DNA from: Sporomusaceae bacterium
Lineage (GTDB): Bacteria; Bacillota; Negativicutes; UBA1444
DNA: 64,000 nt
Reading direction: 5' to 3'
NCBI GenBank assembly: GCA_018434355.1
Contig: JAHDPL010000024.1
Coordinates: forward strand, 128,522-192,521
Below are positions 3,513 through 44,092 of the stretch, in pieces. The notes below the pieces were generated by a model, which saw only the letters and a list, made by a program, of their open reading frames with translations, did not search any database and had not been told where the DNA came from. The translations under genes and the position numbers were made by a program. Positions within the stretch are counted from its first letter, which is position 1; each line of letters begins with the position of its first letter.

Positions 3513-5075
3513 TTGCCTGTTTCAGTCGAACAAATTATGAATTTGGAAGATATCTCAAGTGTTGCGAAGCTAGTTGCCGGTCATGGCGGCATCAAAAACC
3601 AGGTAACTTTCGTTACGATCTCAGAAGCGCCAGACTTTTATCAATGGGTATATGGGGGAGAATTCGTTTTATCAACCCTTTACGCATTTAAAGATTATCC
3701 CGAATTGCGCGCTACTGCATATCGGGAGTTGGCCAAACGCGGCGTATCGGCAGTTGCCATCAAAACAAAACGGTTTTATGATGAAATACCGGCGGACCTG
3801 ATTGAAATTGCAAATGAATATAACATGCCGCTATTTGAAGTGGAGCGGGAAACCAAATTTCGCCAGATTATCCAGGCAATCACTGCAGAACTAAACAATG
3901 AACAGACCAATTTGTTGAAAGAAGTGGAACGGCATTATCAAGAACTGGCAGAAGCGGCGCTGATAGGTGGTGATTATGATCAGCTAGTTCGTGGTTTTGG
4001 CCGTCGCAGGAAATGTAATGTCTTGTGTTTTCGCGCAGATAATTTATTAGTGGGTAGCTATGTACCCAAAGCACGAGAGATGGACATAGCCGTCGTTCAG
4101 GATCAGATTGTCGCCTATCAACGACAATTTGGCGAAATCATGCAAAACATAACACTCACTGGCTGGCATGTGTTTCCTTGTATAACTCGAGGCCAGGCGA
4201 TTGGTTACCTAATGATCGCAGACCCCAGTCCTCTGACCGAAAAATTCGCCTTGATGGCCAAGCAACTGACAACATTTCTGACCTTAAAGCTGATCGATCA
4301 GCTGGATATGGAACAAAGGACATTGACAGCGTTGTTTGACGATATCTTGTTCAAACACAATCTTACGGAAGACGAGTTGCGTGAACGTTTGGCTTTGCAT
4401 GGGCTCAAACGGACCGGTTTTTATCGTGTGGTCGTTGTTCAGCAAGCAAACAAAATTTCGGACGTGGCTGATGATGGTAGTTTCAGGACGGTTTGTGGGA
4501 AAATACGGACGGCGTTGGGAGAAGCTTTGTTAATCAATAAGCCGGATGAAGCGATTTTCATTGCTGCAGGGCAACAGGCTGACGGAGATTCGTTGTTGGC
4601 TGGGTTCAAAAAACTTGATGCAGAAATATTGTCCAGCGAGGCTCCATTCTGTATCGGTATCGGTCCTGCAGTTGCCAATGCAAGAGAAATTCACAGCAGC
4701 TATTTGATTGCGCAAAGTACAGTCAGAGCAGGAACTGCTTTCGAGCAAGGCGGCATCCACTATTATTCCGAATTTCTGGCGCGGATATTATTGCTGCGCA
4801 CGACCGATACCGCTGAAAACAAGTATTTGCAGGAAGTGGTAATCGCTCCCCTGTTAGCGCAGGATTTGCGTTATAACACGCAGCTGCTGCACAGCCTGGG
4901 CGCCCTGATTTTTGCTGATGATTTGGAAGCTGCAGCGTCGGCCCTATTTGTTCATATCAATACGGTAAGATATCGGCTCAACAAGATAAAACAGTTGACG
5001 GGATACGATTTTTTTACTGCCAAAGGCCGTTATACACTCACCACAGCCTACCTAATGCACCGGTTTGTTCAGTAG
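3513..5075 (+). CDS. PucR-family transcriptional regulator
   Basis: C-terminal PucR HTH (LFVHINTVRYRLNKIKQLTGYDFFTAKGRY); start assigned to TTG 8 nt after AAAGGAGG (ORF track begins at 3459; ATG 3537 alternative). Confidence 0.7.
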   Translation: MPVSVEQIMNLEDISSVAKLVAGHGGIKNQVTFVTISEAPDFYQWVYGGEFVLSTLYAFKDYPELRATAYRELAKRGVSAVAIKTKRFYDEIPADLIEIANEYNMPLFEVERETKFRQIIQAITAELNNEQTNLLKEVERHYQELAEAALIGGDYDQLVRGFGRRRKCNVLCFRADNLLVGSYVPKAREMDIAVVQDQIVAYQRQFGEIMQNITLTGWHVFPCITRGQAIGYLMIADPSPLTEKFALMAKQLTTFLTLKLIDQLDMEQRTLTALFDDILFKHNLTEDELRERLALHGLKRTGFYRVVVVQQANKISDVADDGSFRTVCGKIRTALGEALLINKPDEAIFIAAGQQADGDSLLAGFKKLDAEILSSEAPFCIGIGPAVANAREIHSSYLIAQSTVRAGTAFEQGGIHYYSEFLARILLLRTTDTAENKYLQEVVIAPLLAQDLRYNTQLLHSLGALIFADDLEAAASALFVHINTVRYRLNKIKQLTGYDFFTAKGRYTLTTAYLMHRFVQ

Positions 5076-5113
5076 TTTGTAGAAAACAACAAAAATTCAC
5101 GCTTTTTTTCACA

Positions 5114-5143
5114 GCCTTCTACGAAGGCTTTTTTTATTTTTTA
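5114..5143 (+). terminator. Rho-independent terminator after PucR gene
   Basis: GCCTTCTACGAAGGC hairpin followed by T-run. Confidence 0.7.
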
Positions 5144-5230
5144 AACTAATATTAGTACTGTAAATGCGAAGGCATAATACGTAATGCTCGACAGCGAAAA
5201 AGAGTGATGAAAGTGAGGTGAAAACATCCA

Positions 5231-6052
5231 ATGAAAAACAAGGTCATATTGACACTGGCTCCGACTGGCAATGTGCCGACAAAGGAAATGAATCCGAATG
5301 TGCCGATAACACCGGCGGAGATTGCGGCGCAAATTTATCAGTGCTGGCGGGAAGGGGCAGCCGTTGCGCACATTCACACCCGTGACCAAGCCGGATTGCC
5401 AACCTCCGACGTGGAAGTAAACCGGCAGGTGTTGGCTGAATTGGACAAATATCCCGACTGCGATATTATTCGGCAACTTTCCACTGGCGGTCGCGCCGGA
5501 AAAAGCTATACGGAACGGGGACAGATGCTTTGCCTGGGGCCGGAGATGGCGAGTCTGGCAACCGGTTCATCCAATTTTCCCGCCAAAGCAAATCTGAACG
5601 ATCCGGAAACCATTTGTTATTTGGCGGGAGAAATGAAGAAGTATGGCGTGAAACCGGAAGTGGAAGTCTTTGATTCGGCAATGTTGTTTAACGCAATCCA
5701 GCTGGCTGACAAAGGGGTAATCGACTGGCCTTTGCAGATCAACTTTGTGCTTGGTGTACCAGGGTCTTTGCCTGCCTCGTTCAAGAATTTATTTTTCCTC
5801 TATGAACAACTGCCGGATAATTGCACATGGTCAATTACTGCCGTTGGGAGGGAACATGTGGAACTCTCAACGATGGCGCTGGCTCTGGGAGGGAATGTGC
5901 GGGTTGGCTTGGAGGACAATGTTTTTTATTCCCGCGGGGTACTCGCTACGAACCTTAGTTTGCTGAAACGAATGAAGGCGATTACTCTAGCCATGGGAAA
6001 AGAAATCGCCAGCCCGGCGGAAGCACGTCAAATATTAGCGCTCGGAAAATGA
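5231..6052 (+). CDS. BKACE-family beta-keto acid cleavage enzyme (3-keto-5-aminohexanoate cleavage enzyme-like, DUF849), paralog 1
   Basis: 273 aa; MKNKVILTLAPTGNVPTKE...AHIHTRD with HxH zinc-ligand motif typical of Kce/BKACE. Confidence 0.8.
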   Translation: MKNKVILTLAPTGNVPTKEMNPNVPITPAEIAAQIYQCWREGAAVAHIHTRDQAGLPTSDVEVNRQVLAELDKYPDCDIIRQLSTGGRAGKSYTERGQMLCLGPEMASLATGSSNFPAKANLNDPETICYLAGEMKKYGVKPEVEVFDSAMLFNAIQLADKGVIDWPLQINFVLGVPGSLPASFKNLFFLYEQLPDNCTWSITAVGREHVELSTMALALGGNVRVGLEDNVFYSRGVLATNLSLLKRMKAITLAMGKEIASPAEARQILALGK

Positions 6053-6091
6053 TTCGATACTGACAGAAATAGAAATAATAGGAGGGTCTTC

Positions 6092-7417
6092 ATGCAAAAG
6101 CTAACTCGGTTCTTTCTGCGTTTGGTCCAGGAATATTTGCCGGATGCCTATATCTTGGCAGTCATCCTATCGATGATCGTTTTTGTTGCCGGTATCTTTA
6201 TTGCCGGCAAGACGCCGCTGCAGATGGTTCAATATTGGGGCGACGGATACCCGTCCCTGTTCAATTTTGGCATGCAGATGGTCATGGTGTTGCTGACCGG
6301 CTATATTCTGGCACTGACTGCCCCCTTGCAAAAAGCGCTGAACTGGATTACCAGTCTGCCGAAAAATCCGCGGCAGGCAGTCGGCCTGACTGCAGCTACT
6401 TCTCTGATCGCTTGCTATTTTAACTGGGGATTTGGTCTGGTTATCGGCGCATTTGTCGCCAAGGCGATGGGCGCCAGGGTCAAAGGCGTTCATTTTCCTG
6501 TATTGGTTGCCGCTGCATACGGCGGGGAAGTCATGCGCGGTCCGTCGTCATCGATTCCTTTGGTATCAGCGACAAAGGGCCACTTTATGGAAAAGATCAT
6601 GGGGATCGTGCCGGTTACAGATACCTTGTATACCTGGTGGAATATCCTGATCAGCGTTGTAGTGTTTGGCATGTTGATTTACTATTTCATGCGGGTTGAA
6701 ACGCCAGCGGAGGAAGTCGTCGAATTCAAAGCGGAAGATCCCATCCTGGTCAAACCGGTTCCGGCAGGCACGGTTGTACGCAGAACTTTTGCCGAAACCT
6801 TGGAAAATAGTTGGTGGGTCAATGCGATGTTTGGCGCTGTACCATTAGTGTATCTGGTTGTAAATTTCAACAAATTGGGATTTGACCTGAATTTGAACTT
6901 GGTAATCATCATTTTCCTGGTGTGTGGATTGTTTTTGCATCGGTCACCCAATGATTATCTTGCTGCTGTCAAAGCGGGAGTTGTTGCCTGTCGTGGCATA
7001 CTGATCCAATTTCCGATTTACGCCACGATGATGAGTATGATGGGGAAATCTGGTTTGGTGGCGATTGTCTCTGCATGGTTCGTGCAAATATCCACCCCGG
7101 AAACTTTCCCGGTATTTACCTTCCTATCTGCAGGATTGATAAACTTCTTCATACCCTCCGGTGGCGGACAGTGGGCGGTGCAGGGGCCGATCATGATGCA
7201 GGCGGCGGAAACCTTACACGCCAACAAGGCGCTGACCATCATGGCGTTCGCCTGGGGCGACTCCTGGACCAATCAAATTCAGCCTTTCTGGGCTCTACCG
7301 CTGCTTGGCGTCGCCGGGCTTTCGGCTCGTGACATTATTGGCTATTGCGTAGTATGGACAGGGATCGTTGGTCTGGTATTGAGTGGCTTCTTCTTGGCGT
7401 TGGGGTTTGTGCTTTAA
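6092..7417 (+). CDS. atoE: AtoE-family short-chain fatty acid transporter, paralog 1
   Basis: 441 aa polytopic membrane protein; N-terminus and overall composition match AtoE (TIGR00366). Confidence 0.75.
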   Translation: MQKLTRFFLRLVQEYLPDAYILAVILSMIVFVAGIFIAGKTPLQMVQYWGDGYPSLFNFGMQMVMVLLTGYILALTAPLQKALNWITSLPKNPRQAVGLTAATSLIACYFNWGFGLVIGAFVAKAMGARVKGVHFPVLVAAAYGGEVMRGPSSSIPLVSATKGHFMEKIMGIVPVTDTLYTWWNILISVVVFGMLIYYFMRVETPAEEVVEFKAEDPILVKPVPAGTVVRRTFAETLENSWWVNAMFGAVPLVYLVVNFNKLGFDLNLNLVIIIFLVCGLFLHRSPNDYLAAVKAGVVACRGILIQFPIYATMMSMMGKSGLVAIVSAWFVQISTPETFPVFTFLSAGLINFFIPSGGGQWAVQGPIMMQAAETLHANKALTIMAFAWGDSWTNQIQPFWALPLLGVAGLSARDIIGYCVVWTGIVGLVLSGFFLALGFVL

Positions 7418-7520
7418 TTCGGGGTTGTAAGTTGATTCGGTAATTTGTTTTGGCGCCCGGGCAACGAGGTTGTTCCAACCCATCGTAGTTCGGGCTGCCA
7501 ATGGAAGGGAAGTTGGGTTA

Positions 7521-8195
7521 ATGAAAAAAGCAATTCAAATTCTTGCGTGTGAACAAGCCATCAAAACGATGATTGCGCCACATAGCAGGGTGATGGTCGG
7601 AGGGTTTGGCTTGCGGGGATATCCGGAAGCCTTGGTCGAAGCCTTGGTAGACAGTGGAATCGGTGAGCTTACAATTATCAGCAATGATCTCGGATCGCCG
7701 GGAGTGGGTCTTGGAAAATTACTAACGAACAACCAACTAAAGGGTTTGGTGGGAAACTACTATAATTGGAATCCGGAAGTTGCATATGCGTACAATGAAG
7801 GGAAAATTACAGTTGACCTGTTGCCGCAGGGGACCTTTGCCGAAGGGATTCGCGCTGCCGGGGCTGGTATTCCCGCTTTTTATACGCTGGCTGGCGTGGG
7901 TACGGAATTGGCTAAAGGCAAAGAAACGAGAAAAATTGGTGAGCGGGATTATGTATTGGAGTATTCCATTTCAGGCGATGTTGCGCTGGTCAAGGCGCAT
8001 AAAGCCGATGAATTGGGTAATTTGGTTTATTATAAAACAGCTCGGAATTTTAACCCCCTGATGGCAATGGCCTGTAAGCACGTTATTGCGCAAGTTGATG
8101 AAATCGTTCCAACAGGGGCGCTGGATCCAGAGTGTATTGTTACTCCGCATATTTTTGTCGATGTTCTGGTCGTGAACGGAGGGAAAGCAAGATGA
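7521..8195 (+). CDS. atoD: 3-oxoacid/acetate CoA-transferase subunit A (family I)
   Basis: MKKAIQIL...VGGFGLRGYPEALVEAL...ISNDLGSPGVGLGKLL; start at ATG 7521 (ORF track starts 7470). Confidence 0.85.
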   Translation: MKKAIQILACEQAIKTMIAPHSRVMVGGFGLRGYPEALVEALVDSGIGELTIISNDLGSPGVGLGKLLTNNQLKGLVGNYYNWNPEVAYAYNEGKITVDLLPQGTFAEGIRAAGAGIPAFYTLAGVGTELAKGKETRKIGERDYVLEYSISGDVALVKAHKADELGNLVYYKTARNFNPLMAMACKHVIAQVDEIVPTGALDPECIVTPHIFVDVLVVNGGKAR

Positions 8196-8875
8196 TACAA
8201 ATAAATGAAGAAACGGCAAAGGAACGGATTGCCCGTCGTATTGCCGCAGAGTTTGATTCCAGCGAGAATCGTTTCGTATTAAATCTGGGAGTAGGAATTC
8301 CCACAATGGTTGCCGATTATGTGAAAAACCCGAATGTATATATCCAGGCGGAGAACGGCATGTTGGGGGTCGGTCCTTTGGCGGCTGAAGGACAGGGAGA
8401 TTGGCAATTGATCAATGCCGGGCGGCAGATTGTTACACAGACGCAAGGCTGCAGTTTTTTCGACAGTTCGATGTCGTTCGGCATGATTCGTGGCGGCCAT
8501 GTCGATGCCACGGTGTTGGGCGCTTTTGAAGTCGATGAACAGGCAAATATCGCCAACTGGATCATTCCCAATGGCAAACAACTTGGGGTTGGCGGAGCAA
8601 TGGATTTGGTCAGCGGTGCCAATCGGGTGATCGTGGCGATTCAGCATCAGGACCGCAAAGGGGTTTCCAAAATCAAACATACATGTTCACTGCCGATTAC
8701 CGGCTTCCATGAAGCAGATATGATCGTGACGGAATATGCTGTGTTTTGCTATGAAAATGAACAACTTGTGTTGAAGGAATATGCGCCCGAAGTTAGCTTG
8801 GACGATGTGCGGTCAATGACAGAAGCAAACTTTGTTGTCAGTCCTCTGGTAAAAGTTATGGAGGTATCGGTATGA
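8192..8875 (+). CDS. atoA: 3-oxoacid/acetate CoA-transferase subunit B
   Basis: MIQINEETAKERIARRIAAEF...AENGMLGVGP (catalytic Glu ENG motif); start overlaps atoD stop (ATGA). Confidence 0.85.
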   Translation: MIQINEETAKERIARRIAAEFDSSENRFVLNLGVGIPTMVADYVKNPNVYIQAENGMLGVGPLAAEGQGDWQLINAGRQIVTQTQGCSFFDSSMSFGMIRGGHVDATVLGAFEVDEQANIANWIIPNGKQLGVGGAMDLVSGANRVIVAIQHQDRKGVSKIKHTCSLPITGFHEADMIVTEYAVFCYENEQLVLKEYAPEVSLDDVRSMTEANFVVSPLVKVMEVSV

Positions 8876-10065
8876 AAGATGCAGTTATTGTTTCGGCAGT
8901 ACGCACAGCAATCGGCAAGTTGGGCGGTTCATTGCAGGATGTGTTGGTCGAACAGTTGGCCAGCCAGACGATTCGGGCAGCGATTGCCAGATCGGGTGTG
9001 GCGGATGAATCCATTGACGAAGTTGTGCTGGGTCATGCAAAACAAAGCAGTGACACGCCGAATCTTGCCCGTGTCGCCGCGCTTTATGCGGAGTTGCCGA
9101 TTGAGTTGTCGGCCTATACGGTGCATCGCCAATGTGGATCGGGAATGCAGGCGGTCATTTCGGCTACCCAGTCGATCAGACTCGGTGATGCACAGGTGAT
9201 TGTCGCAGGTGGCGCCGAAAGTATGAGCACGGCGCCGTATTATATCAGGCAGGCTCGCTTTGGCTATCGTTCCGGCAATGGCGAGTTGCTAGACCCCAAT
9301 ACGGAGAGTCAGCCCAAATCGCAACCGGTTGAAAAATTTGGCAGGATTACGATGGGGCTTACTGCAGAGAATTTAGCGGAAAAGTATGGGATTTCGCGCA
9401 AGACGCAGGATGAGTTTGCGTTGAATAGCCAGAACAAAGCATTAACAGCGATTTCAGACGGACGTTTTGCCGATGAAATCCTTCCTGTACCGGTAAAACA
9501 GGGGAAACAGGTGCACGACTTTCGCATTGATGAGTATCCCAAGCAAACCTCGGAGGAGGTTCTGGCCGGTTTAAAGCCAGCATTCAAGCGAGACGGCACG
9601 GTGACTGCCGGCAATGCCTCGGGGCGCAATGACGGTGCGGCGGCGATGGTGTTGATGGAGCGTGAAAAAGCATTTGAACAGGGAATTGTACCGCAAGTTC
9701 GGGTCGTGTCATATGCCAGCGCCGGTGTTTCACCTGAATTTATGGGGATCGCACCTGTTCCGGCAACTCGCAAAGCGTTAAAGTTGGCAGGCTTGTCGCT
9801 AAAAGAAATTGATTTGATTGAACTGAATGAGGCGTTTGCCGCCCAGAGTTTGGCTGTTGTGAAAGAACTGCAAATTGACCATGAAAAGTTGAATGTAAAC
9901 GGCGGAGCCATCGCCTTGGGTCATCCTATTGGTTGTTCCGGGGCACGGATTATCGTAACGTTGATTCACGAAATGTTGAAACGAAAATCGCGATATGGAT
10001 TGGCGACGCTGTGCATCGCAGGCGGCCAGGGCAGTGCGGTGATTTTGGAAAACATGCAAGTATAG
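8872..10065 (+). CDS. acetyl-CoA C-acetyltransferase (thiolase II)
   Basis: 397 aa; MKDAVIVSAVRTAIGKLGGSL, active-site Cys (VHRQCGSGMQAV), NEAFAAQ, GHPIGCSGARI. Confidence 0.9.
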   Translation: MKDAVIVSAVRTAIGKLGGSLQDVLVEQLASQTIRAAIARSGVADESIDEVVLGHAKQSSDTPNLARVAALYAELPIELSAYTVHRQCGSGMQAVISATQSIRLGDAQVIVAGGAESMSTAPYYIRQARFGYRSGNGELLDPNTESQPKSQPVEKFGRITMGLTAENLAEKYGISRKTQDEFALNSQNKALTAISDGRFADEILPVPVKQGKQVHDFRIDEYPKQTSEEVLAGLKPAFKRDGTVTAGNASGRNDGAAAMVLMEREKAFEQGIVPQVRVVSYASAGVSPEFMGIAPVPATRKALKLAGLSLKEIDLIELNEAFAAQSLAVVKELQIDHEKLNVNGGAIALGHPIGCSGARIIVTLIHEMLKRKSRYGLATLCIAGGQGSAVILENMQV

Positions 10066-10083: not shown

Positions 10084-11172
10084 TCATATGGATATGCTAA
10101 GATGATTTCGACCGGCTATCCATTGATAGCTGCTGCTCTTGGTCAGTTTCTCGATTAAACGCAGTGACAGGTTATCGCTATCTGGCAGCAACAGAAATGG
10201 ATTTTGCTGCAATCCCGCGTAATTGAACAATAGTTGGAAATCGCCGGTTTTTTCGGAGTACTCAAGTGTCAGCTCGATTGCCGGATCGCCGGGAAATAGC
10301 GGCAATAACATTTGGCCGAGAACTTCTTCCACGATTAGCAAGATGTGGCTTACGGTTCGTTTATCTGCCGTATGGCGGGCGCAAAACAGCTCCAGGTTTG
10401 CCTGCAGTTTATAAAGGTCGAAATGGCGACTGACCACTTTTTCACAAAACTTGCGGATTCTTTGGATAAAGATCCGCGTTTTTTCTTTTTGCGGGTTATC
10501 GAAAATGTCGCTCGGTTTGCCTTCTTCATAGATGATTCCTTCGTCCATGTAAAACACGCGGCTTGACACATTTTTGGCGAAATCCATTTCATGTGTCACG
10601 ATCGCCATTGTCATGCCGTCTTTGGCCAACCTGCGAATTACGGACAGCACTTCGCTGACCATGGTGGGGTCGAGTGCCGAAGTCGGTTCGTCAAACAGGA
10701 TGATTTCCGGGTCCATTGCCAGACAACGGGCGATAGCGACCCGCTGTTTTTGGCCGCCGGAGAGTTCATCGGGAAACTGATGCAGCTTTTCTGATACTCC
10801 GACGGATTTCAGCAGTTCTATGGCTTTTGATTCCGCATCCTGGCGAGACTTCCCGAGCAGTATCATGGGTCCAAGCGTCAGGTTATCCAAGACTGTTAAG
10901 TGTGCAAACAGGTTGAAGGATTGAAAGACCATGCCCATTTTGCGCCGCAACTTCGGTTCATCCGTGCCTTTTTGCAGGATATTGACTCCGTCAATCACGA
11001 TGCTGCCGCCGGTAGGGCGTTCGAGCAGGTTCAGGCAACGCAGGAAAGTGCTTTTGCCGGTGCCGGACGGCCCGATGATCGAAATGACTTCGCCCTTGCG
11101 GATTTCGGCATTGATATCTTTTAAAACCCAGTGATCGCCAAAGCGTTTGGAGAGATTCTTCACGCTGATCAT
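10084..11172 (-). CDS. polar amino-acid ABC transporter ATP-binding protein with ~115-aa C-terminal extension of unknown function
   Basis: Walker [10 protein letters not shown], signature [13 protein letters not shown], Walker [12 protein letters not shown]; 362 aa versus ~240 aa for GlnQ-type ATPases. Confidence 0.8.
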
Positions 11173-13526
11173 GGCTGTTGCCTCCTTACCATGGCCGCAA
11201 TGTCGTTTTCCAGGTAGGCAATGGAAAACACACAGGCCGCTTCCCGCTCGTTCAGTTTGTAAAAATTGGCGATGGCCAGGTCGATTTTTCCGGCTTGCAG
11301 CGCAGCAATCATCGCATCATAAGACATATCGGTTATTTCCAGCTTCATCTCCAGATGTTCGGCCAACAGATAAGCCAGCTCGATGTCAAGTCCCGCCATC
11401 ACGCCATTGGACATGAAGGCGTAGGGCTCGCTGAGCAGACAGGTTCCCATCCTGAGCACGCCATTGCGGCCGTCAAGCGTAATTTTAGGTACGGTAGGAG
11501 TAGTCGCAGACAGAATCCATTTTTGCTTCAATCTGTCGATGGTCCCATCCTGCTTGAATTTGTTGATCGCCGCATTGACTTTACGGTGCAGGTCGGGAGC
11601 ATCGCTGCGCATCGGAATGGCAATCTCGACGGTAGACAGGCGCTCCGGCAAAATTTCATAGTATTGCTGGTGTCTAGCCAAGATATATTGCAGGGTGTTC
11701 CGGTCAAAAACAAACGCGTCGGCCTTGTTTGCCCGCAATGCCAGTGCGGCATCAGCCGGGTATACCATATCGACGACCTTGGCATTTTTATATTTCTCAC
11801 GGATGACAAAATCGCCGGTCGTACCGGTAATGACCGCGATTCTTTTGCCGTTGAGGTCAGACAGGCTTTTGATAGCGGCGCCTGTTGTCACAGAGATGGA
11901 TTTGGGTTCAGTTGGTCCGGTGGAGTTGTATACCGCAACCATTGCCAGACTCAGAATCGCCAACAGCAGCAATGTCAACCAACTAGCGCGAGAGGCGAGA
12001 AGACCGGAACAATTTTTTCGGCGCGGATCACTGAGCCGGTCCAGCGCGTCCAAAAATTGCAGCAGCAGGGCGGAAATCGCAAAGTAGAGTACCGCCGTCA
12101 TCAACAGCGGGAAAAACGCGTCGAATGTGCGGCTGCGGATGATGTCACTGGCCTTGGTCAGATCTTGTACGGCGATATAGCCGACAATCGAGGTCATCTT
12201 GACCAGCGAGATGACTTCACCTTTATAAACGCTCAGAACCCGCCGGATGGCTTGGGGCATGATGATGTATACGAACGTTTGAAACTTGTTGAATCCGCCG
12301 GCGATGCCTGCTTCAGTCTGGCCCCGGTCGATGCTTTCGATCGCAGCGCGAAACATCTCCGAAACATAGGCGGCGAAATTCATGCCAAACGCCACGATAG
12401 CCACCAATACCGGCGATACATTGGCATTACCGAAAATCACGTAATACATAATCATCAGCAGCACTAGCACGGGCACGCCGCGCATCAGCGAAATGTAAAG
12501 GCGGGCGGTAAGCTGGAATGATTTTCGGCGCGACATCCGCAAAAAGCAGATGAATCCGCCCAGCAGCGTGCCGAACAGGATGGAGAACAGCGAAATTACC
12601 AGCGTGGTTTTCAGACCGTCGAGGATTAACAAATAGCGGTTTTCCCTGATAATATTGCTGTGAAATCCTTCGACAAGACTTTGGGTCAGCGAAATCGAGT
12701 GAACTGATTTCTGATGGGAGCCTGCCAGGTGAGAGATATTTTTCTTCAATGCAATTACCGCAGTTTTGTCTTCCATATAAGGGATACTGAAGTCGACTTG
12801 TTTCTGTCGCTCAGCGTTGATGGCTATGCAATCAGCGATCATATCCACCTTGCCGCTGGCCAAGGAAGCGATCAATGCGGAAAAATCCATCGACAGGATC
12901 TGCAGATTTATGTTTTCCTGGGCGGCAAAGGTCTGAATCAGTTCAATGTCAAAGCCAACATATTCGCCATCGACATAACCTGCGCTCGGCAGATCGCCGA
13001 TCGCGACTCCCAGGACAACCTTGCGACCGCTTGGATTGACTTTGAACTTTGGCATTTTGATGGTGCCCAGGTCGTTGTCGAACCATTTCCTGTACATCGT
13101 CTCCAGGGAGCCGTCGGTTTTGCGAGCCTGCAAGAAGGCGTCAAAACGGGCCCGTAGCTCAGGGTTGTTTTTGTTGAATCCGATGCCGATGGGAAAGGTT
13201 AGTAGTTGATCGGTAAGGATGCCGACTTCGGCATTGTCTTTTAGCATATTTTTGGCTGCTGCATAATTAGTGATCGCTACGTCGACCTTTTCACTTTTTA
13301 TTGCCAACAACAGATCGGTCTGGGAATTGTAGCGCAAGATTTGGGCGTCAGGAAATCGTTCACTGGCGAATTTGTCATAAATGAAGCCGCTGACTACTCC
13401 GATACGTTTGTTCGACATGTCTTCGATGGTTGCAAGGCGGCTGGTCGGCGTCTGTTTGCTGCAACCGGCAAGCAGAGCCAAAATCATCAGTAGAGTTATG
13501 AACAGTAGGTGCCTTGTGTGTTTCAA
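11169..13526 (-). CDS. fused amino-acid ABC transporter: lipoprotein substrate-binding domain - permease TMD - second substrate-binding domain
   Basis: ~785 aa; AGGAGG + 8 nt + TTG gives [22 protein letters not shown] lipobox (ORF track starts 18 nt upstream at 13544); His/Gln-type permease motifs; two SBP_bac_3-like domains. Confidence 0.75.
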
Positions 13527-13764
13527 CTGAAAAGCCTCCTGCAATATGAGAATGTCCGATTGCTGCCTCTCTAGATAATACGGTGCATTATAGGAAAACC
13601 CCTGCCTAACAAGGACTGTAGACAGGAAAAAATAGGACGAAATTCCCAGTGAAAAATAAGACCTCGGTATGATGGCGGATTGGTTTCTACTTGCTACAAT
13701 TTAATCAGAAAGCAGGACAGGAAAATCCTGAAACAAAAATAAAAAATTAGGGAGGAATAATACA

Positions 13765-14864: not shown

Positions 14865-16526
14865 ATGGAACCAGTGCAGGCGATTGTATTTGAACAGCTG
14901 TTTTGCCTGGAAGAATTGCAGCGACTGCAGGATCAATTTGCCGCAGCGACAGGAGTGGCTTCCATCATCACCAGACCTGATGGAACGCCGATTACCCGGC
15001 CAAGTAAATTTTGCCGGCTTTGCGTGGATATTATTCGAAAAACTCCAATCGGGCTGGCCAATTGTTGTCGCTCTGATGCGCAAATCGGCCGCTTGCGACT
15101 GGATGGGCCAACGGTGCAATTGTGTGAAAGCGGCGGACTTTGGGATGCCGGAGCCGGTATTTCCGTTAATGGCCAACACTTGGCGAACTGGCTGATTGGA
15201 CAGGTTCGCGATGAAAATCATACCGAAGCCCAGATCCGTGAATATGCCATTAAGATTGGAGCCGATGAAGCGAAAGTAGTAGAGGCTTTTTTTGAAATCC
15301 CATCCATGTCATTGGAACGGTTTCGTGATATAGCCAGTTTGCTATTTACGCTCAGTAGCCAACTTGCGGATACTGCCGCCAAAAAACTGCTGCAAAATCA
15401 GTTATTGAGCGCTAAAGAAGTGGCCGAAGAAAACGAAACCAGATTTAAAGCCCTGCATAATGCTTCGTTTGGCGGGATTTCAATCCATGATAAGGGGATA
15501 ATTCTTGACTGCAATCAAGGTCTAGCAGAAATATCCGGCTATTCAGTGGAAGAATTGGTTGGAATGAACGGTTTGTTGCTTATTGCCGAGCGCTCTCGCG
15601 AACTGGTCATGAAAAACATTCTGTCTGGATATGAAAAACCCTATGAAGCCTTCGGGGTAAGAAAAAATGGTGAAGAATTTCCCATGCGTTTAGAAGCTCG
15701 AGAGATTCCCTATAAAGGAAAACAGGTCAGGACTGTTGAATTTAGAGATATTACCGAACAAAAACAGGCAGAACAGATCATTGAAAACAAAAACAAAGAA
15801 CTGGAACAGATTGTTTATGTAGCGTCGCATGATTTGCGTTCACCGCTGGTTAATGTAGATGGCTATAGCCGTGAAATGCAGTATTTGGTGGAAGAACTCC
15901 GACTTGCACTTGGCGAAGAGCAAGCTGACAGTCCAAATTTGAATGCGGCGCGTGCTGTATTGCCGGAGATGACTGATGCTTTGCGACACGTCAGAAACAG
16001 CACTAGCCAAATGGACGCATTGCTGAAAGGATTGCTGCGGCTTTCTCGATTGGGGAGAGCGGCGCTTTGCTTGGAACATTTGAATATGAAAGACCTGCTC
16101 GGTCGCGTCGCATCGTCCTACGAGTTTCAGCTCCGATCCGCAGGGATTAGTATAGAAATTGACGGATTGCCTGATTGCCAGGGCGATGCGGTTCAGGTGG
16201 CGCAGATTTTCTCCAATTTAATCGGTAATGCGGTGAAATTTACTGACCCAAGCAGACCTGGCGTTATTCGGGTCAGCGGTATGACTGAGATGGGCCGCAG
16301 CATTTACTGTGTAGAGGACAATGGCATCGGAATAGCACCGGAACATCAGAATAATATATTTGAACTGTTTCATCGTTTGAATCCGGCCGATACCGAAGGG
16401 GAAGGGCTTGGACTCACCATTGTCAGGCAGGTGGTCGGGCGGTTGGGCGGTGATATTCGATTGGAGTCACAACTAGGAGTGGGGAGTCGGTTTTTTGTTG
16501 CATTGCCGGCCGCTCGCTCTAAGTGA
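14865..16526 (+). CDS. cytoplasmic sensor histidine kinase with PocR ligand-binding domain, PAS, HisKA, HATPase_c
   Basis: N-terminal PocR signature (ITRPDGTPITRP...CRLC...CCRSD...QLCESGGLWDAG), PAS (FGVRKNGEEFP), H-box VASHDLRSPL, G-boxes; no TM segments. Confidence 0.8.
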   Translation: MEPVQAIVFEQLFCLEELQRLQDQFAAATGVASIITRPDGTPITRPSKFCRLCVDIIRKTPIGLANCCRSDAQIGRLRLDGPTVQLCESGGLWDAGAGISVNGQHLANWLIGQVRDENHTEAQIREYAIKIGADEAKVVEAFFEIPSMSLERFRDIASLLFTLSSQLADTAAKKLLQNQLLSAKEVAEENETRFKALHNASFGGISIHDKGIILDCNQGLAEISGYSVEELVGMNGLLLIAERSRELVMKNILSGYEKPYEAFGVRKNGEEFPMRLEAREIPYKGKQVRTVEFRDITEQKQAEQIIENKNKELEQIVYVASHDLRSPLVNVDGYSREMQYLVEELRLALGEEQADSPNLNAARAVLPEMTDALRHVRNSTSQMDALLKGLLRLSRLGRAALCLEHLNMKDLLGRVASSYEFQLRSAGISIEIDGLPDCQGDAVQVAQIFSNLIGNAVKFTDPSRPGVIRVSGMTEMGRSIYCVEDNGIGIAPEHQNNIFELFHRLNPADTEGEGLGLTIVRQVVGRLGGDIRLESQLGVGSRFFVALPAARSK

Positions 16527-16565
16527 ATTATTATGAAGGAAAACTTCGTTCAAGGAGCTGAGCGC

Positions 16566-17012
16566 ATGAATCAAGATGTGGTCATTCTCGTTGCGGAAGA
16601 CGATGAAGGGCACGCTGGTCTGATCCGGAAAAATTTGGCCCGTGCAGGAATTGCAAATCAATTGTTGCATTTCAAAGATGGGCAGGCGATTGTAGATTTT
16701 TTGTTTCGATATGGCGAAGGTCCATATCGTCAGGACAACGTACCTTATGTTTTGTTGTTAGATATTCGGATGCCAAAACTTGATGGTACGGAAGTATTGA
16801 AGTTGCTCAAGGCGGATAAAGAATTGAGAAAAATACCGGTGATCATGATTACAACGACCGATGATCCGCGGGAAGTTGAAAAATGCCATGCAATTGGTTG
16901 TAGCAACTATATCACCAAACCGGTCGACTATGATGCGTTCGTCAACGCAATACGGCAACTGGGCTTGTTTTTGGCCGTTGTTCAGGTTCCAGCTGTACAC
17001 GGAGCTCATTAA
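16566..17012 (+). CDS. stand-alone receiver-domain response regulator (CheY-like)
   Basis: MNQDVVILVAEDDEGHAGLIRKNLARAG...LLLDIRMPKLDGTEVLK; AAGGAG RBS 8 nt upstream. Confidence 0.8.
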   Translation: MNQDVVILVAEDDEGHAGLIRKNLARAGIANQLLHFKDGQAIVDFLFRYGEGPYRQDNVPYVLLLDIRMPKLDGTEVLKLLKADKELRKIPVIMITTTDDPREVEKCHAIGCSNYITKPVDYDAFVNAIRQLGLFLAVVQVPAVHGAH

Positions 17013-17024
17013 AGGAGTCGACGC

Positions 17025-18959
17025 ATGGACGAGGTTGCACACCGGAACATGGCGGCAAATAAACGTGTTCTGGTAGTCGATGACGATGAAGGTTTGAGAA
17101 ATCTAATTGCACGAAGGCTGCGCAAGGCGGGCTTTGAAGTTTCGCTTGCCGTCAATGGAGCGGCTGCGGTCGAACTTGCATTGGTCGATCCTGGTCAATT
17201 GCTGGTGCTTGACCAAAAGCTTGTCGATATGACCGGGCGAGAAGTGATTCGTCTGCTAACGGAGCAGGGTTGCAAGGTTCATTTTGTCATGATGACTGGA
17301 CAGGGCGATGAGCGGCTGGCCGTGGAAATGATGAAACTTGGCGCAGCCGATTATCTGGTCAAGGGGCTTGACTTGCTTGACTTACTGCCTGCGACGCTGG
17401 ACCGTGTATTTCGTGCCATCGAAACAGAAAACCGATTACTGAAAGCAGAAAAAGAGCTGCAGGATAGCAGGGAACAATACCGGGCGCTGATTGAGCAGGC
17501 CTATGAAGCAGTGGTGCTGATTGATCCGGAAACTTGGCTGATTGTTGAAGTAAACCAACGGTTTAGCGAATGGTTTGGCTACAGGTTGCCGGCAGACGCT
17601 CCGCTTTCACGCAATGCTATTTTATCTGAGGCATCAGCCAATCAGGAATACTACGATGCAAAACTATTTGCCGACGGATTTTTGCCGGTGGCGCGCCGAA
17701 CTTTTCGCCATAAGGACGGCACATTGCTGTTTATGGAGCGGAGCGCCAAAATCATCAATCATCAATCGCGTCGTTTAGTCGTCGTCATCTATCGCAACAT
17801 TGCCGAACAGCTCCAACAGGAACAGGCGCGACTGCAGGATGCGGCGATTGCCCGCCGAATTCAAAGGGCGCAACTGTCTTGCCCGGATGAAACGGAATAT
17901 GTGTCGATCGAGACGGCATTTCTGCCCTGTGGGGATATCAGCGGAGATCTGTATCATCTGGAATGGCGAAATGACGGAAATTTGCTGCGCGGTTATCTGG
18001 TTGATGTGGCGGGGCATGGGTTGACAACGGCGCTATATACATCGACAATCAATATATTGTTGCATGAAGCTGCCGAATTGGATGCTTCACTCTCGGAACA
18101 GCTCGATTGGCTAAATCGACAAGTGGTCAGACATTTTTCTACCAGCGCCTACGTCGCTGCAATTGCATTTGAACTTGATCTGCAGATGGGGGAACTTCGG
18201 TACGCGAGTGCTGGAATCAATCGTTTCTGGGTGCGGATGGCTGCCCGGAAAGGAATGGTGGCGGTTTCCGGCCCATATCTCGGCAAAGAACCGTCTTGGC
18301 GCTATATGATGCAGCAATTGCCGATTGCAGCCGGTGATCACATTTGTTTTGCTACCGATGGCGTTGAAACCATACTGGCGGATCAGCCTCTATGCCAGGC
18401 ATGTGATGGAAGACAGATATCCGCGATGCTTTTGGCTCTACCGGAATGGACTGAAAAAACGCATGATACGACTGCCGTCTGTTTGCAGATTAAAGCGTTG
18501 CCGCACTCCCTGCAGGACGGTAAGTGGCCCAAAGTTTTGAAATTGAACGGGTTTGACGATTATCGACGCTTGAAAGGGCAAGTGGCAAAAATACTGGCTG
18601 ATGCAACCGATTTACCTCATTCCTTGCAGGAAGTTGCAGTGAATGAGGCTTTGGCTAATGCTATGGAATGCAGGGATGGCGTTCCCCGACAGCACCGAGC
18701 GAGAATCCGGTTCAACAAAATCGGCGCATGGTTGATTGTTCGCGTGCGAACCTCACGGATTGGATTCGCCGGAAATGCCGTTTTGCGTCGGTTGCGGGCA
18801 ATGCCTGACGAAATGTTTGCTTTTGGCGAGGATCAGGCGATGGGGCGGGGGATTCCTCTGATGTTAAGCCTATCACACAAAATGATGTATAACAGTGACG
18901 GTACAGAAGTACTGCTGGCCTGGAATATGAAACGACAGGAACTAAATAACAACAAGTGA
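17025..18959 (+). CDS. multidomain signalling protein: receiver - PAS - PP2C/SpoIIE phosphatase - HATPase_c (RsbW-like) domain
   Basis: REC (VLVVDDDEGLRNLIARRLRKAGFEV), PAS, PP2C motif (GDISGDLYHL...VDVAGHGLTTAL), C-terminal GHKL N-box (EVAVNEALANAMECRDG) and G2 (AMGRGIPLM). Confidence 0.75.
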   Translation: MDEVAHRNMAANKRVLVVDDDEGLRNLIARRLRKAGFEVSLAVNGAAAVELALVDPGQLLVLDQKLVDMTGREVIRLLTEQGCKVHFVMMTGQGDERLAVEMMKLGAADYLVKGLDLLDLLPATLDRVFRAIETENRLLKAEKELQDSREQYRALIEQAYEAVVLIDPETWLIVEVNQRFSEWFGYRLPADAPLSRNAILSEASANQEYYDAKLFADGFLPVARRTFRHKDGTLLFMERSAKIINHQSRRLVVVIYRNIAEQLQQEQARLQDAAIARRIQRAQLSCPDETEYVSIETAFLPCGDISGDLYHLEWRNDGNLLRGYLVDVAGHGLTTALYTSTINILLHEAAELDASLSEQLDWLNRQVVRHFSTSAYVAAIAFELDLQMGELRYASAGINRFWVRMAARKGMVAVSGPYLGKEPSWRYMMQQLPIAAGDHICFATDGVETILADQPLCQACDGRQISAMLLALPEWTEKTHDTTAVCLQIKALPHSLQDGKWPKVLKLNGFDDYRRLKGQVAKILADATDLPHSLQEVAVNEALANAMECRDGVPRQHRARIRFNKIGAWLIVRVRTSRIGFAGNAVLRRLRAMPDEMFAFGEDQAMGRGIPLMLSLSHKMMYNSDGTEVLLAWNMKRQELNNNK

Positions 18960-18966
18960 GGCAACG

Positions 18967-20142
18967 ATGGAGTGGGAAAATAAAACAGATAGTTCCGCCC
19001 GCTGGCGGGAAGATGCCGAAAAGGCATTGCTAAGGGGACAAATCGACGAGGCGTTTCGCAATATTGACAAGGCGATTGCCGCCAGCGGTCGCACGATCGA
19101 TTTGCTGATGAAGGCGGACCTGCTTTGGGCAGCCGGCAAGCATGAGCAATGCATCGAATATATCGAGAACAACATGGTCAGGTTTGAAGCCGATTTAACG
19201 GAGCGTGAGCGAAAAAGCCGATTGTTGCCATTGTTGCGCAAAGGCGCAGAGTATTTCTATAAAAAAGCCGATTCGCTGTATGAGGCAGGGCGTTATGCAG
19301 AATGCGCCGAGTTTGCCAAATTTGTTCTTACCGAGCATGCTAGTTTTTTGCAACAGAAAAAATATCGCGAATTATTTGAGTTTGCCTGGCAAAGTTCCAA
19401 TGACGAATTGCTGCGCAGCCTATATAAAAGTCGTGATTATGAGGGATGCGTCGATGCCGTCGATCATATCTTCGCTCAGGCGCGTCGTTTGACGACCTTT
19501 GGCCAGCGCAACCGCTATCGGAAATTGCGGGCGAAGGCGTATTTTCGCCAGGGTCGTTATGCAATCGGTCTGCTCGATTATTTTGCCGTGCCTGGCGTCT
19601 GGATAACATTGTTTGCAGTGATAATCCTTGTTTATGGTCTAAATATCGGTTATCAGATACTGGTGGGAAGTGGTTTCTTTAAACCGTCATCTGTCGTGAC
19701 GCAAAAAAATGAATCGCCGACCGCGACAACACCGTCTGAAGCTGTAAAAGTCGCGCCGACCAGACCGGCAGTCAGGCGGGCGGAAATTAAAAGCGTCAAA
19801 TTGTTTGAAGCCGATCGGGCGATTCCGCTGGTCGGGGCGCGGGTCTACCAAAATCAGTTCACTCGCCAAGCCCGGCGGATCTTTGTTGAAGTTCATTATC
19901 GCAATCTTAATTTCCGTAAGGCTGACGTATCGTTGCCGCTGATCATCCAGTACATCAGTCCGACCGGTGTTCTATTGCAGGAACTGACCACGACATCCAA
20001 CCCGAAAAAGGAATACGAATCGGCGATTACTTCCATGGGGTGGCGACCGGATGAAGATGCCGCCTGGCAACCAGGACGTTATACGGTCCGGGTGATATTG
20101 GATGGCGAACAGCTGCCGGACGTAAACTTTGAAGTGCGATGA
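18967..20142 (+). CDS. hypothetical bitopic membrane protein: cytoplasmic TPR-like N-domain, one TM helix, extracytoplasmic ~115-aa domain
   Basis: TM helix VWITLFAVIILVYGLNIGYQILV; C-terminal domain homologous to repeats of the secreted protein at 53873-54877. Confidence 0.5.
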   Translation: MEWENKTDSSARWREDAEKALLRGQIDEAFRNIDKAIAASGRTIDLLMKADLLWAAGKHEQCIEYIENNMVRFEADLTERERKSRLLPLLRKGAEYFYKKADSLYEAGRYAECAEFAKFVLTEHASFLQQKKYRELFEFAWQSSNDELLRSLYKSRDYEGCVDAVDHIFAQARRLTTFGQRNRYRKLRAKAYFRQGRYAIGLLDYFAVPGVWITLFAVIILVYGLNIGYQILVGSGFFKPSSVVTQKNESPTATTPSEAVKVAPTRPAVRRAEIKSVKLFEADRAIPLVGARVYQNQFTRQARRIFVEVHYRNLNFRKADVSLPLIIQYISPTGVLLQELTTTSNPKKEYESAITSMGWRPDEDAAWQPGRYTVRVILDGEQLPDVNFEVR

Positions 20143-20837
20143 GTGGAGCAGAACTGGCCTATTTGCGGCGGATCCCTGTATTTGAAGATTTGGCGCCGGA
20201 AGATTTGCAGCTGATTATTCGGGTTACTGCAGAACGGCGGATTGCTCGCGGTCAGGCAGTGTTTAGCGAAGGAGAGCCCGGCGAAGGATTTCACTATATT
20301 CGCAGCGGACGGGTCAAAATTATCAAACTGTCTGCTGATGGGCGGGAGCATATCCTGAACATCCTTGGTCCTGGCGATGTTTTTGCCGAAGTACTGTTGT
20401 TTAATGAAGCGCCGTATCCGGCTACTGCCATTGCTGTGGAAGATGCCGTGATCGGTGTCATTCGCAATCGTGACCTAGAAGCGCTATTGGTTGCTCAGCC
20501 ACGACTGGCGGTTCATGTCATACGGGTGATGAGCAAGAAGCTGTTGTACATCCAGTCCAAAGTAAAGTCGTTTGCATTGGCCGACAGTCAGGCGAAAGTC
20601 GCGCAAACCCTGGATTATTTACTGGGACGGTATGGGAACCCTACCGGCAATACGCGGGAAGTAACCCTGGAAATTAATCGCCAGGATCTTGCCAATATGG
20701 CTGGAACGACGCGAGAAACAGTAAGTCGTGTGTTCAGGACGTTAAAGGATGATGGAGTGATTGAGGATGAAGAACGACGAATCGTAGTAAGGGATCCAGT
20801 TCGTTTGCGGACATATTTCGAACAATCGGTAGTTTAA
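20139..20837 (+). CDS. Crp-family (cNMP-binding) transcriptional regulator
   Basis: cNMP-binding domain plus C-terminal HTH with recognition helix RETVSR (CRP-like R-E...R); no FNR Cys cluster; start overlaps upstream gene stop (ATGA). Confidence 0.8.
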   Translation: MSGAELAYLRRIPVFEDLAPEDLQLIIRVTAERRIARGQAVFSEGEPGEGFHYIRSGRVKIIKLSADGREHILNILGPGDVFAEVLLFNEAPYPATAIAVEDAVIGVIRNRDLEALLVAQPRLAVHVIRVMSKKLLYIQSKVKSFALADSQAKVAQTLDYLLGRYGNPTGNTREVTLEINRQDLANMAGTTRETVSRVFRTLKDDGVIEDEERRIVVRDPVRLRTYFEQSVV

Positions 20838-23921: not shown

Positions 23922-23969
23922 TTTTTAAAGGGATATTTGTGACGGCATTTATCTTGAGGAGGGGTGTTT

Positions 23970-27558: not shown

Positions 27559-27654
27559 GGTTGTGATTGCGTGAACTTGCAAAGGTTAATGGAAAATCAA
27601 TGAAACACAATGAAATTAGGGGTTTTAACCCATTTTTGCATGTCGAGATTTGGT

Positions 27655-27670: not shown

Positions 27671-27732
27671 ATGATTGGCAATTGACTGATAAAGGACAAC
27701 GTGTCCGGAGAAAGACAGGGAGGCAGAAAAAC

Positions 27733-38677: not shown

Positions 38678-38682
38678 CCGTC

Positions 38683-44082: not shown

Positions 44083-44092
44083 CATTACATAT

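Follow-up and report, generated by a model that had tools for sequence, protein, structure and literature searches.

The window analyzed here is a 64 kb stretch of DNA from a Sporomusaceae bacterium (contig JAHDPL010000024.1, positions 128,522 to 192,521), and the term refers throughout to the whole of that stretch. Near its beginning lies a gene group, module A, that includes a gene for an enzyme of the BKACE/DUF849 family, which we call BKACE-A; a second BKACE encoded in the window is referred to as BKACE-B. Open reading frame (ORF) analysis combined with family profile searches placed six genes of module A on the + strand between 3513 and 10065. This is the same gene set, at the same coordinates, that had been listed in an earlier note on this DNA: a PucR-type regulator, a BKACE, AtoE, a two-subunit CoA-transferase, and a thiolase. 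The first gene (3513-5075) encodes a PucR-family transcriptional regulator of 520 aa with matches to PF07905, GGDEF_2 (PF17853), and HTH_30 (PF13556); its longest ORF begins at 3459, and the gene call begins at 3513. An intrinsic-terminator-like stem-loop follows on the same strand at 5113-5139 (a 7-bp stem with 4 G-C pairs, then the T-run TTTTTTTATTT), and it is also conserved in the two loci most similar in layout, L022 and L002. Because this element separates the regulator gene from that of BKACE-A, the regulator is likely to form its own transcription unit. The BKACE-A gene (5231-6052, + strand, 273 aa; PF05853, E = 7.5e-88) is the first gene of the operon, and its start is preceded by a GAGGTG ribosome-binding site. 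After a gap of 39 nt comes the gene for an AtoE-like short-chain fatty acid transporter (SCFA_trans, 6092-7417, + strand, 441 aa; PF02667, E = 7.6e-120) and, after a further 103 nt, the genes for subunit A (7521-8195, + strand, 224 aa; TIGR02429) and subunit B (8192-8875, + strand, 227 aa; TIGR02428) of a 3-oxoacid CoA-transferase and for a thiolase (8872-10065, + strand, 397 aa; Thiolase_N and Thiolase_C), which are connected to one another by 4-bp start/stop overlaps. Given the tight gaps and overlaps downstream of the terminator, the prediction of a five-gene operon running from BKACE to thiolase is well founded. The region upstream of BKACE-A was found to lack a sigma-54 promoter, in contrast to BKACE-B and to every related locus with a sigma-54 activator, all of which have one. 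A riboswitch or leader was likewise not detected, as a search of the window with Rfam at the gathering threshold returned three tRNAs only.

The products of the last four genes were assigned using subfamily profiles. Both transferase subunits exceed the cut-offs for family-I 3-oxoacid CoA-transferases (PcaIJ/ScoAB/AtoDA), with subunit A scoring 237.5 bits on TIGR02429 (cut-off, 128.5) and subunit B scoring 260.8 bits on TIGR02428 (cut-off, 243.55). Subunit A falls below the E. coli-type AtoD equivalog NF007394 (200.2 versus 315), and its nearest solved structure is B. subtilis ScoA (3cdk, 209 bits, compared with 169 bits for E. coli AtoD). Its closeness to ScoA would suit succinyl-CoA as the CoA donor, but this is weak evidence. 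The transporter similarly scores below the TIGR00366 equivalog (401.2 versus 575.75 bits), such that the two proteins are best described as AtoE- and AtoD-like, with their orthology to the E. coli proteins being only putative. The thiolase exceeds the cut-off of TIGR01930 (acetyl-CoA C-acyltransferase, thiolase II type; 466.8 versus 240.55). Its best models are of the acetoacetyl-CoA/BktB type, and all of the more specific ones remain under their own cut-offs; the 3-oxoadipyl-CoA thiolase model gave 402.9 against 605. The window was found to contain no second copy of this CoA-transferase or of the thiolase. The genes needed for acetoacetate activation and thiolysis are thus present downstream of BKACE-A, as had been claimed. 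In the functions of the transporter, the two-subunit CoA-transferase, and the thiolase, module A resembles atoDAEB of E. coli, which has a different gene order and is regulated by AtoSC. It differs from that operon in its additional BKACE, its PucR-type regulator, and a CoA-transferase that is nearer to ScoA than to AtoD.

The relationship of BKACE-A to Kce

BKACE-A scored 294.9 bits on PF05853 (cut-off, 24.8) with residues 4-271 of its 273 covered, and most of the stronger matches among the 15 solved structures it detected were BKACE/DUF849 proteins. Its close relatives make up a subfamily of at least 120 clusters at 90% identity, with members that are 67-96% identical across Negativicutes and Acidobacteriota, which come from peat and other anoxic samples. 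Source databases give BKACE-A and these relatives the name Kce. The residues of Kce with assigned roles are the Zn ligands H46/H48/E230, the catalytic Glu143, Arg226/Asp231, and the carboxylate-binding Ser82/Thr106 (PMC11961710, Supplementary Note 2). BKACE-A keeps H47, H49, and E228 as Zn ligands along with E145, R224, D229, S84, and S108, each of which is retained by 118 or more of the 120 subfamily members. The residue corresponding to Kce T106 is Ser, as in BKACE15, and that corresponding to N108 is Ala. Since the catalytic positions checked are intact, BKACE-A is predicted to be an active BKACE and not a decayed one.

Despite the database name, four tests agree that BKACE-A is not Kce, to the extent that sequence comparison can tell. 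The first is the profile score: BKACE-A reaches 299.5 bits on the NCBIfam Kce equivalog NF052387, for which the cut-off is 382, and two of its orthologs (P0018 and P0011) score 317 and 298. This is nonetheless the top-scoring NCBIfam model for BKACE-A, which also stays under the cut-offs of the models for 3-oxoadipate:acetyl-CoA acetyltransferase (NF053568; 240.6 versus 350, with 493 for the control 3NO5) and triacetate acetoacetate-lyase/3,5-dioxohexanoate (NF053538; 186.2 versus 430, with Val where Trp is expected). The second concerns the residue that recognizes the lysine-derived substrate. Glu14 of Kce binds the 5-amino group of the substrate (PMC10470551). In both HMMER and MAFFT alignments this residue corresponds to Val15 of BKACE-A, and Val is found there in 113 of 120 subfamily members. 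Kce Ala86 corresponds to Arg88 of BKACE-A, and Arg is invariant at this position in the subfamily.

The third test is phylogenetic placement. A neighbor-joining tree, calculated without bootstrap support, was constructed from 144 sequences consisting of references, a sample of the subfamily, and sequences chosen to represent the results of an exhaustive search across 1.84 billion cluster representatives. The clade of Kce holds about 20 of these chosen sequences, almost all of them with Glu14, and BKACE-A lies outside of that clade. It belongs instead to a tight clade within a separate Val/Leu14-Arg86 superclade that includes 3NO5, and the signature residues follow the clades of the tree. By pairwise identity BKACE-A is about equally far from the characterized enzymes (40.5% to Kce, 40.2% to 3NO5, and 30% to BKACE15), and it is 42.7% identical to BKACE-B. 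Finally, the gene neighborhood does not resemble that of a lysine fermentation locus. None of the kamA, kamDE, kdd, or kal-type genes was found among the large ORFs scanned in the window, a scan in which four ORFs had no family match and from which the ABC ATPase-like ORF at 57708-58412 was left out. Nor were kam/kdd-type neighbors found in the approximately 45 loci encoding BKACE-A orthologs that are described below, or any recurrent Kdd- or Kal-like neighbor family in the roughly 40 ortholog loci scanned for it. A lysine or glutamate 2,3-aminomutase was also sought near the orthologs by scanning ORFs of 300-520 aa in about 40 loci for the radical-SAM motif CxxxCxxC, and none was found, as the single match looks spurious. 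A Kat-type role, in which the enzyme would work after a Kce as a 3-aminobutyryl-CoA transaminase, was considered for the aminotransferases that adjoin some orthologs and rejected, because Kat is HemL-like and these proteins resemble the omega-transaminases 3i4j and 4a6r.

These results bear directly on the possibility that BKACE-A is a true Kce and that module A encodes the later half of a standard lysine-to-butyrate/acetate fermentation pathway, with kamA, kamDE, kdd, and kal located elsewhere in the genome. BKACE-A and Kce share a Pfam family, a Zn-dependent TIM-barrel, and a downstream route from acetoacetate through CoA-transferase to thiolase, and the lysine pathway is known to pair kce with an acetoacetate CoA-transferase and a thiolase (PMC3149608). 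Moreover, the scan covered the 64 kb of the window, with the rest of the genome lying outside of it. Set against this are the sub-cut-off score, the Val in place of Glu14, the position in another clade, the PucR regulator, the omega-transaminase-like character of the neighboring aminotransferases, and the ortholog loci that were free of lysine fermentation genes. We therefore regard this explanation as largely refuted and extremely improbable, and 3-keto-5-aminohexanoate (KAH) as a very unlikely substrate for BKACE-A. The earlier note had argued from the missing kam/kdd/kal partners that the substrate is probably not KAH and had proposed profile, phylogenetic, and gene-neighborhood checks of this view; all three came out in its favor, as did the residue at the Glu14 position. 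Because the subfamily is named Kce in source databases, the anaerobes that carry it could be miscounted as lysine fermenters and butyrate producers, a labeling that the evidence argues against for the subfamily as a whole.

Genomic contexts of BKACE-A orthologs

Approximately 45 loci encoding orthologs 67-96% identical to BKACE-A were collected by scanning genome and metagenome collections and by exact-protein look-ups. Several types of context recur among them. In the first, a sigma-54 enhancer-binding protein is found with the BKACE, a DASS transporter, and in some cases a HIBADH-type dehydrogenase (L003, L004, L005, L013, L018, L020), and in most of these loci a matching promoter of the form TGGCAC-N5-TTGCA lies 72-76 nt upstream. 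Two further loci have parts of this arrangement: the sigma-54 promoter and HIBADH dehydrogenase in L023, and the activator and promoter with other transporters in L027. In the second context, a class-III aminotransferase gene is located directly upstream of the BKACE gene in Acidobacteriota (L006, L009, L035, L036, L039), following an SDF transporter gene in L036; in the Negativicutes L015 and L016, the aminotransferase gene is divergent from a TAXI-TRAP-BKACE operon. The third context, seen in L050/L051, is the most informative. Here a LysR regulator gene is followed by genes for CoA-transferase subunits A and B, a BKACE (70% identical and with the same pocket signature), a CitMHS transporter, a HIBADH-type dehydrogenase, and a thiolase, so that the supply genes of the first context and the CoA-transferase and thiolase of the window occur together in one operon. 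Lastly, there are single or clonal loci in which the neighbor is a 3HCDH-type, SDR, aldo-keto-reductase, or 2-hydroxyacid-dehydrogenase enzyme or an aldehyde:ferredoxin oxidoreductase. The regulators of the orthologs in sister lineages are of the sigma-54, LysR, or RpiR type.

The proteins encoded next to the orthologs provide some indication of what the subfamily may act upon. The DASS transporters resemble the dicarboxylate transporters DiT1/LaINDY (393 bits), and the CitMHS protein scores 381 bits against a cut-off of 259.7. The TAXI binding protein resembles 1us4, a glutamate-binding protein that was deposited as a putative GluR0 ligand-binding core. Among solved structures, the partner dehydrogenase is most closely related to 2-(hydroxymethyl)glutarate dehydrogenase, an enzyme with a dicarboxylate substrate. 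The aminotransferase is 29-33% identical to the beta-alanine:pyruvate transaminase BauA, an identity too low to be informative. Among close Negativicutes, 15 pocket-region positions of the BKACE are the same, except for two that vary, across the PucR-AtoE, DASS-HIBADH, and aminotransferase-TAXI contexts. As the pocket is nearly constant from one context to another, the orthologs probably have one substrate specificity that is served by different supply lines. Pocket residues were also considered as a signal of sub-specificity and discarded, because their variation tracks phylogeny and not context type. The recurrence of carboxylate transporters, together with either a beta-hydroxyacid dehydrogenase or an omega-aminotransferase, beside members of the subfamily marks what would be a catabolic route ending in acetoacetate.

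In six loci from peat Acidobacteriota (L010, L011, L028, L031, L032, L045), the ortholog gene is flanked by those of a LuxR-type regulator on one side and an aldehyde:ferredoxin oxidoreductase on the other, and most of these loci have genes for a phosphoglycerate-dehydrogenase-like enzyme and an MFS transporter upstream. The 2-hydroxyacid-dehydrogenase neighbor in Acidobacteriota was considered as an NAD-dependent formate dehydrogenase, an identity that would have spoken for formyl-CoA as a product; it proved to be phosphoglycerate/glycerate-dehydrogenase-like instead. We also observed that BKACE-A is 67-75% identical to proteins from Acidobacteriota metagenome-assembled genomes (MAGs), while GlyS of the host (33150-35363) is only 57-63% identical to that of named Negativicutes (Sporomusa, Pelosinus, and a 'Veillonellaceae' MAG). 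The GlyS values mark the host as an uncultured member of the Negativicutes. The contrast suggests interphylum horizontal transfer of the BKACE gene, unusually strong constraint on its product, or both.

Proposed reaction sequence and candidate substrates

From the chemistry of the family, BKACE-A would be expected to convert a beta-keto acid and acetyl-CoA to acetoacetate and an acyl-CoA (R-CO-CH2-COO- + acetyl-CoA -> acetoacetate + R-CO-CoA). The CoA-transferase would then activate acetoacetate at the expense of an acyl-CoA, which could be the BKACE product itself (acetoacetate + acyl-CoA -> acetoacetyl-CoA + acid), and the thiolase would split acetoacetyl-CoA with CoA into two acetyl-CoA, one of which re-primes the BKACE step. 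If the acyl-CoA made by the BKACE is indeed the donor, the net reaction would be beta-keto acid + CoA -> R-COO- + acetyl-CoA, a closed loop with no ATP spent on activation. Such a loop would constitute a way to thiolyse free beta-keto acids without ATP cost. The joining of a BKACE to an acetoacetate-salvage set is a known design, as the combination with acetoacetate CoA-transferase and thiolase has been described for the lysine (PMC3149608) and phloroglucinol (PMC10470551) pathways, and the substrate diversity of BKACEs is well documented (PMC4922564). What is new here is a well-delimited and strongly conserved BKACE subfamily with consistent supply enzymes. One parallel is the anaerobic phloroglucinol cluster of Clostridium scatologenes, which encodes PGR, DPGC, TfD, and TAL along with a thiolase and CoA-transferase (PMC10470551). 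TAL, like BKACE-A, is a non-Kce BKACE that is annotated as Kce and has an apolar residue in place of Glu14, and its pathway likewise places a dehydrogenase ahead of the BKACE step and an acetoacetate CoA-transferase and a thiolase after it. The residue in TAL is Trp, as in BKACE-B and unlike BKACE-A, and no reductase or cyclohydrolase is encoded near BKACE-A.

On balance, we think it reasonably probable that module A is an ato-like acetoacetate-utilization operon that has acquired a BKACE as its first gene, with a short dicarboxylic beta-keto acid as the favored substrate. That the substrate is in fact of this kind, for example 3-oxoglutarate or 3-oxoadipate, has roughly an even chance within this explanation. 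Since the orthologs are accompanied by a dehydrogenase or an aminotransferase and by di/tricarboxylate-type transporters, the substrate is likely to be a hydroxy acid or amino acid converted to its oxo form. The two enzymes would converge on 3-oxoglutarate, made from 3-hydroxyglutarate or beta-glutamate, or on 3-oxoadipate. Four transporter families linked to the orthologs (DASS, CitMHS, TAXI, and SDF) are typical of di/tricarboxylates or acidic amino acids, and the Arg at Kce position 86 is common to the subfamily and the 3-oxoadipate enzyme 3NO5. The latter enzyme, a 3-oxoadipate:acetyl-CoA acetyltransferase of the beta-ketoadipate subgroup (BKACE group G3), falls in the same Val/Leu14-Arg86 superclade as BKACE-A and has the pocket-region residues S82, G84, G85, R86, G88, S106, A108, N113, F114, and P115 in common with it. 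They differ in overall sequence (40% identity), in the score on the 3-oxoadipate model noted above, and at four other positions, with Arg16/Lys176/Gly204/Gly206 of 3NO5 being Thr/Pro/Ile/Ala in BKACE-A. More remotely, BKACE-A is related (E about 1e-7) to ObcA/Obc1 of Burkholderia (PDB 4NNA, 5IKY), an enzyme of oxalate biosynthesis that is very distant in sequence and part of a larger biosynthetic protein. ObcA combines oxaloacetate, itself a dicarboxylic beta-keto acid, with acetyl-CoA in a pathway that yields oxalate and acetoacetate, and it would be a precedent for dicarboxylic substrates. Were 3-oxoglutarate the substrate, the operon would explain the degradation of 3-hydroxyglutarate or beta-glutamate; in the case of 3-oxoadipate, it would bypass PcaIJF without a preceding activation step.

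Several observations weigh against this assignment. The substrate, the direction of the reaction, and the CoA donor are all deduced from sequence, and the tree that unites BKACE-A with 3NO5 is the neighbor-joining tree without bootstrap support. No dehydrogenase or aminotransferase is encoded beside BKACE-A, and as the window has no feeder enzyme for it, such an enzyme must be encoded elsewhere in the genome. Arg88 aligns beside the pocket residue Kce Val87 and not at one, making its exposure to substrate only putative, and the basic Arg16 and Lys176 of 3NO5 are among the residues replaced in BKACE-A. Free 3-hydroxyglutarate, beta-glutamate, and 3-hydroxyadipate are uncommon metabolites. A dicarboxylic substrate also does not explain the aldehyde:ferredoxin oxidoreductase of the six peat loci.

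Two other points against a dicarboxylate would be accounted for if BKACE-A acted on a neutral or polar monocarboxylic beta-keto acid, such as 3-oxopentanoate, 3-oxohexanoate, 3,5-dioxohexanoate, 5-hydroxy-3-oxohexanoate, or a 2-deoxy-3-keto sugar acid, with the logic of the operon remaining the same. One is that the transporter of the window is of the monocarboxylate, short-chain fatty-acid type AtoE and not a dicarboxylate carrier. The other is that the positions facing the distal part of the substrate, Kce E14, V87, and F114, are apolar in BKACE-A (Val, Ala, and Phe), much like the Ile, Pro, and Phe of BKACE15, an enzyme of group G1, which acts on non-charged substrates (PMC11961710, PMC4922564). 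In addition, some orthologs adjoin 3HCDH-type or SDR dehydrogenases and SSF or MFS transporters, and BKACEs are promiscuous (PMC4922564). The recurrence of four di/tricarboxylate-type transporter families, the invariant Arg shared with the 3-oxoadipate enzyme, and an identity of only 30% to BKACE15 nevertheless make a monocarboxylic substrate rather unlikely, though a possibility to be taken seriously.

The remaining points favor a semialdehyde. The HIBADH family mostly acts on primary alcohols and aldehydes, and an aldo-keto reductase or aldehyde:ferredoxin oxidoreductase adjoins some orthologs. BKACE-A might accordingly be thought to use malonate semialdehyde or a 2-substituted analogue, formed from 3-hydroxypropionate, beta-alanine, or malonate, and to cleave it to formyl-CoA and acetoacetate, from which formate and acetyl-CoA would follow. 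The enzymes that classically accompany (methyl)malonate-semialdehyde dehydrogenase are class-III omega-aminotransferases and HIBADH dehydrogenases, and in ortholog loci both pair with the BKACE instead. The window also encodes, at 137-1306, a family-III CoA-transferase, which belongs to the formyl-CoA transferase superfamily, and more than 20 of 124 BKACEs show activity on malonate semialdehyde in vitro (PMC11961710). On the other side, the transporters of the orthologs are di/tricarboxylate or glutamate types and not the carriers expected for 3-hydroxypropionate or beta-alanine, the BKACE of L025 adjoins a 3HCDH-type dehydrogenase, a family that oxidizes secondary alcohols, and the aminotransferase has only its low identity to BauA. 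The family-III CoA-transferase adjoins no ortholog, and those malonate-semialdehyde-active enzymes of the CORE study that could be identified by name belong to G1, to whose member BKACE15 BKACE-A is only distantly similar. We consider this substrate improbable. If correct, however, the operon would be a natural, redox-neutral route to formate and acetyl-CoA, corresponding to modules 2 and 3 of the CORE cycle, a synthetic pathway (BKACE15 + AtoDA + AtoB; PMC11961710) in which the acetyl-CoA used by the BKACE is likewise regenerated by CoA-transferase and thiolase. A synthetic module for CO2 reduction would thus have a natural form, and the reaction and three-enzyme loop termed 'new-to-nature' in that paper would already exist in anaerobes. 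The CORE modules differ from module A in being engineered, in using malonate semialdehyde, and in relying on a G1 enzyme. In the literature collection searched, only the synthetic CORE work was found to connect malonate semialdehyde, beta-alanine, or 3-hydroxypropionate with formyl-CoA or an enzyme of the BKACE/Kce type, and a search on the names of dicarboxylic substrates found nothing pointing to the BKACE-A subfamily.

Origin of the operon, module B, and other genes of the window

The view of module A as an ato-like operon with an acquired BKACE draws on the distribution of its other genes. Homologs of the window's AtoE that are 60-74% identical are found in ato-like blocks at three loci. 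L047 has genes for CoA-transferase AB, thiolase, AtoE, and a PucR regulator 31% identical to that of the window, with no BKACE. In L049, a peptidase gene is followed by those for AtoE and CoA-transferase AB. L046 has a PucR ortholog (52% identical), AtoE, thiolase, and CoA-transferase AB, and continues with a dehydrogenase of the 3HCDH type, a BKACE other than BKACE-A (46% identical, Leu14/Arg86), and a second CoA-transferase pair. The order PucR-BKACE-AtoE was found only in L022 besides the window, with the BKACE and AtoE being 96% and 99% identical, respectively; in L002, the contig ends after PucR and the BKACE (91%). Because PucR and the ato-like block occur without BKACE-A, the regulator appears to belong to the acetoacetate block and BKACE-A to have been recruited to it, making BKACE-A a probable addition to an older ato-like operon of related Negativicutes. 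In L047 (an ENA scaffold), the block and its PucR gene adjoin genes for HTH_11/CBS, kinase/pyrophosphorylase, and LptA-like proteins, dnaG, and rpoD, in an order that matches 38027-43805 of the window except for an extra HD-domain gene. The window's own ato-like block is 28 kb away from this segment, and the block has therefore presumably moved.

The same L047 block could be taken to mean that module A serves only for the use of external acetoacetate or short-chain acids, as atoDAEB does in E. coli, with BKACE-A being a passenger or working in the condensing direction (acetoacetate + acyl-CoA -> beta-keto acid). In vitro, BKACEs can run their reaction in both directions (PMC10470551, PMC11961710), in keeping with the latter option. 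However, the BKACE-A gene is first in the operon, has a ribosome-binding site, lies 39 nt from atoE, and is kept in L022. The subfamily is also under strong constraint (70-75% identity between phyla), and the ortholog operons, in which a transporter and a dehydrogenase or aminotransferase are under dedicated regulators, are typical of catabolism. It is hence most improbable that BKACE-A is dispensable to, or runs backward in, an operon of this kind.

Module B, located downstream, consists of genes for a sigma-54 activator (25919-27457), BKACE-B (ORF 27610-28554, probable start 27733), a dehydrogenase of the 3HCDH type (28566-29510), and another AtoE-like transporter (29524-30864). The BKACE-B gene is preceded by a sigma-54 promoter of consensus sequence (TGGCACGAATGTTGCA, 27655-27670). 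BKACE-B is 43% identical to BKACE-A, has Trp at the Kce Glu14 position like the characterized triacetate acetoacetate-lyase, and does not reach the cut-off of any NCBIfam equivalog; the window ORFs scanned did not include a cyclohydrolase gene. The idea in the earlier note that module B might supply the substrate of module A found no support, as module B has its own transporter and dehydrogenase and a BKACE of a different pocket type. It lacks a CoA-transferase and thiolase, of which the window has no second copies, and would therefore be a parallel feeder of acetoacetate. More plausibly, then, it makes acetoacetate for module A rather than the substrate of BKACE-A. Upstream of module B are genes for an SDR (23157-23921), a protein of the 4-hydroxybutyryl-CoA dehydratase/HpaB family (23964-25421), and a C_GCAxxG_C_C redox protein (25448-25900).

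The gene for the family-III CoA-transferase mentioned above lies 3.9 kb upstream of the BKACE-A gene. The models that its product matches best are those for succinate-glutarate and formyl-CoA transferases, with scores far under the cut-offs, and between the two genes are a minus-strand gene of unassigned family and a gene for an NA37 nucleoid protein. This CoA-transferase was considered as a conserved partner of BKACE-A and set aside because it was seen in no ortholog locus. On the other side of module A, a GlnQ-like ATPase gene (10084-11172) is convergent with the thiolase gene, with 18 bp between the stop codons. It follows a 791-aa minus-strand ORF (11169-13544) in which three SBP_bac_3 solute-binding stretches are combined with an ABC permease domain in an unusual fusion. 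A signaling cluster at 14865-20837 encodes a PocR-sensor histidine kinase, a receiver protein, a receiver-PAS-SpoIIE phosphatase-HATPase_c_2 protein, a 391-aa protein that matched no family, and a Crp/Fnr regulator. Aside from module B, the rest of the window is mostly made up of housekeeping and signaling genes, and the three tRNAs (Asn-GTT, Met-CAT, and Glu-TTC) form a cluster at 43884-44167 downstream of rpoD.

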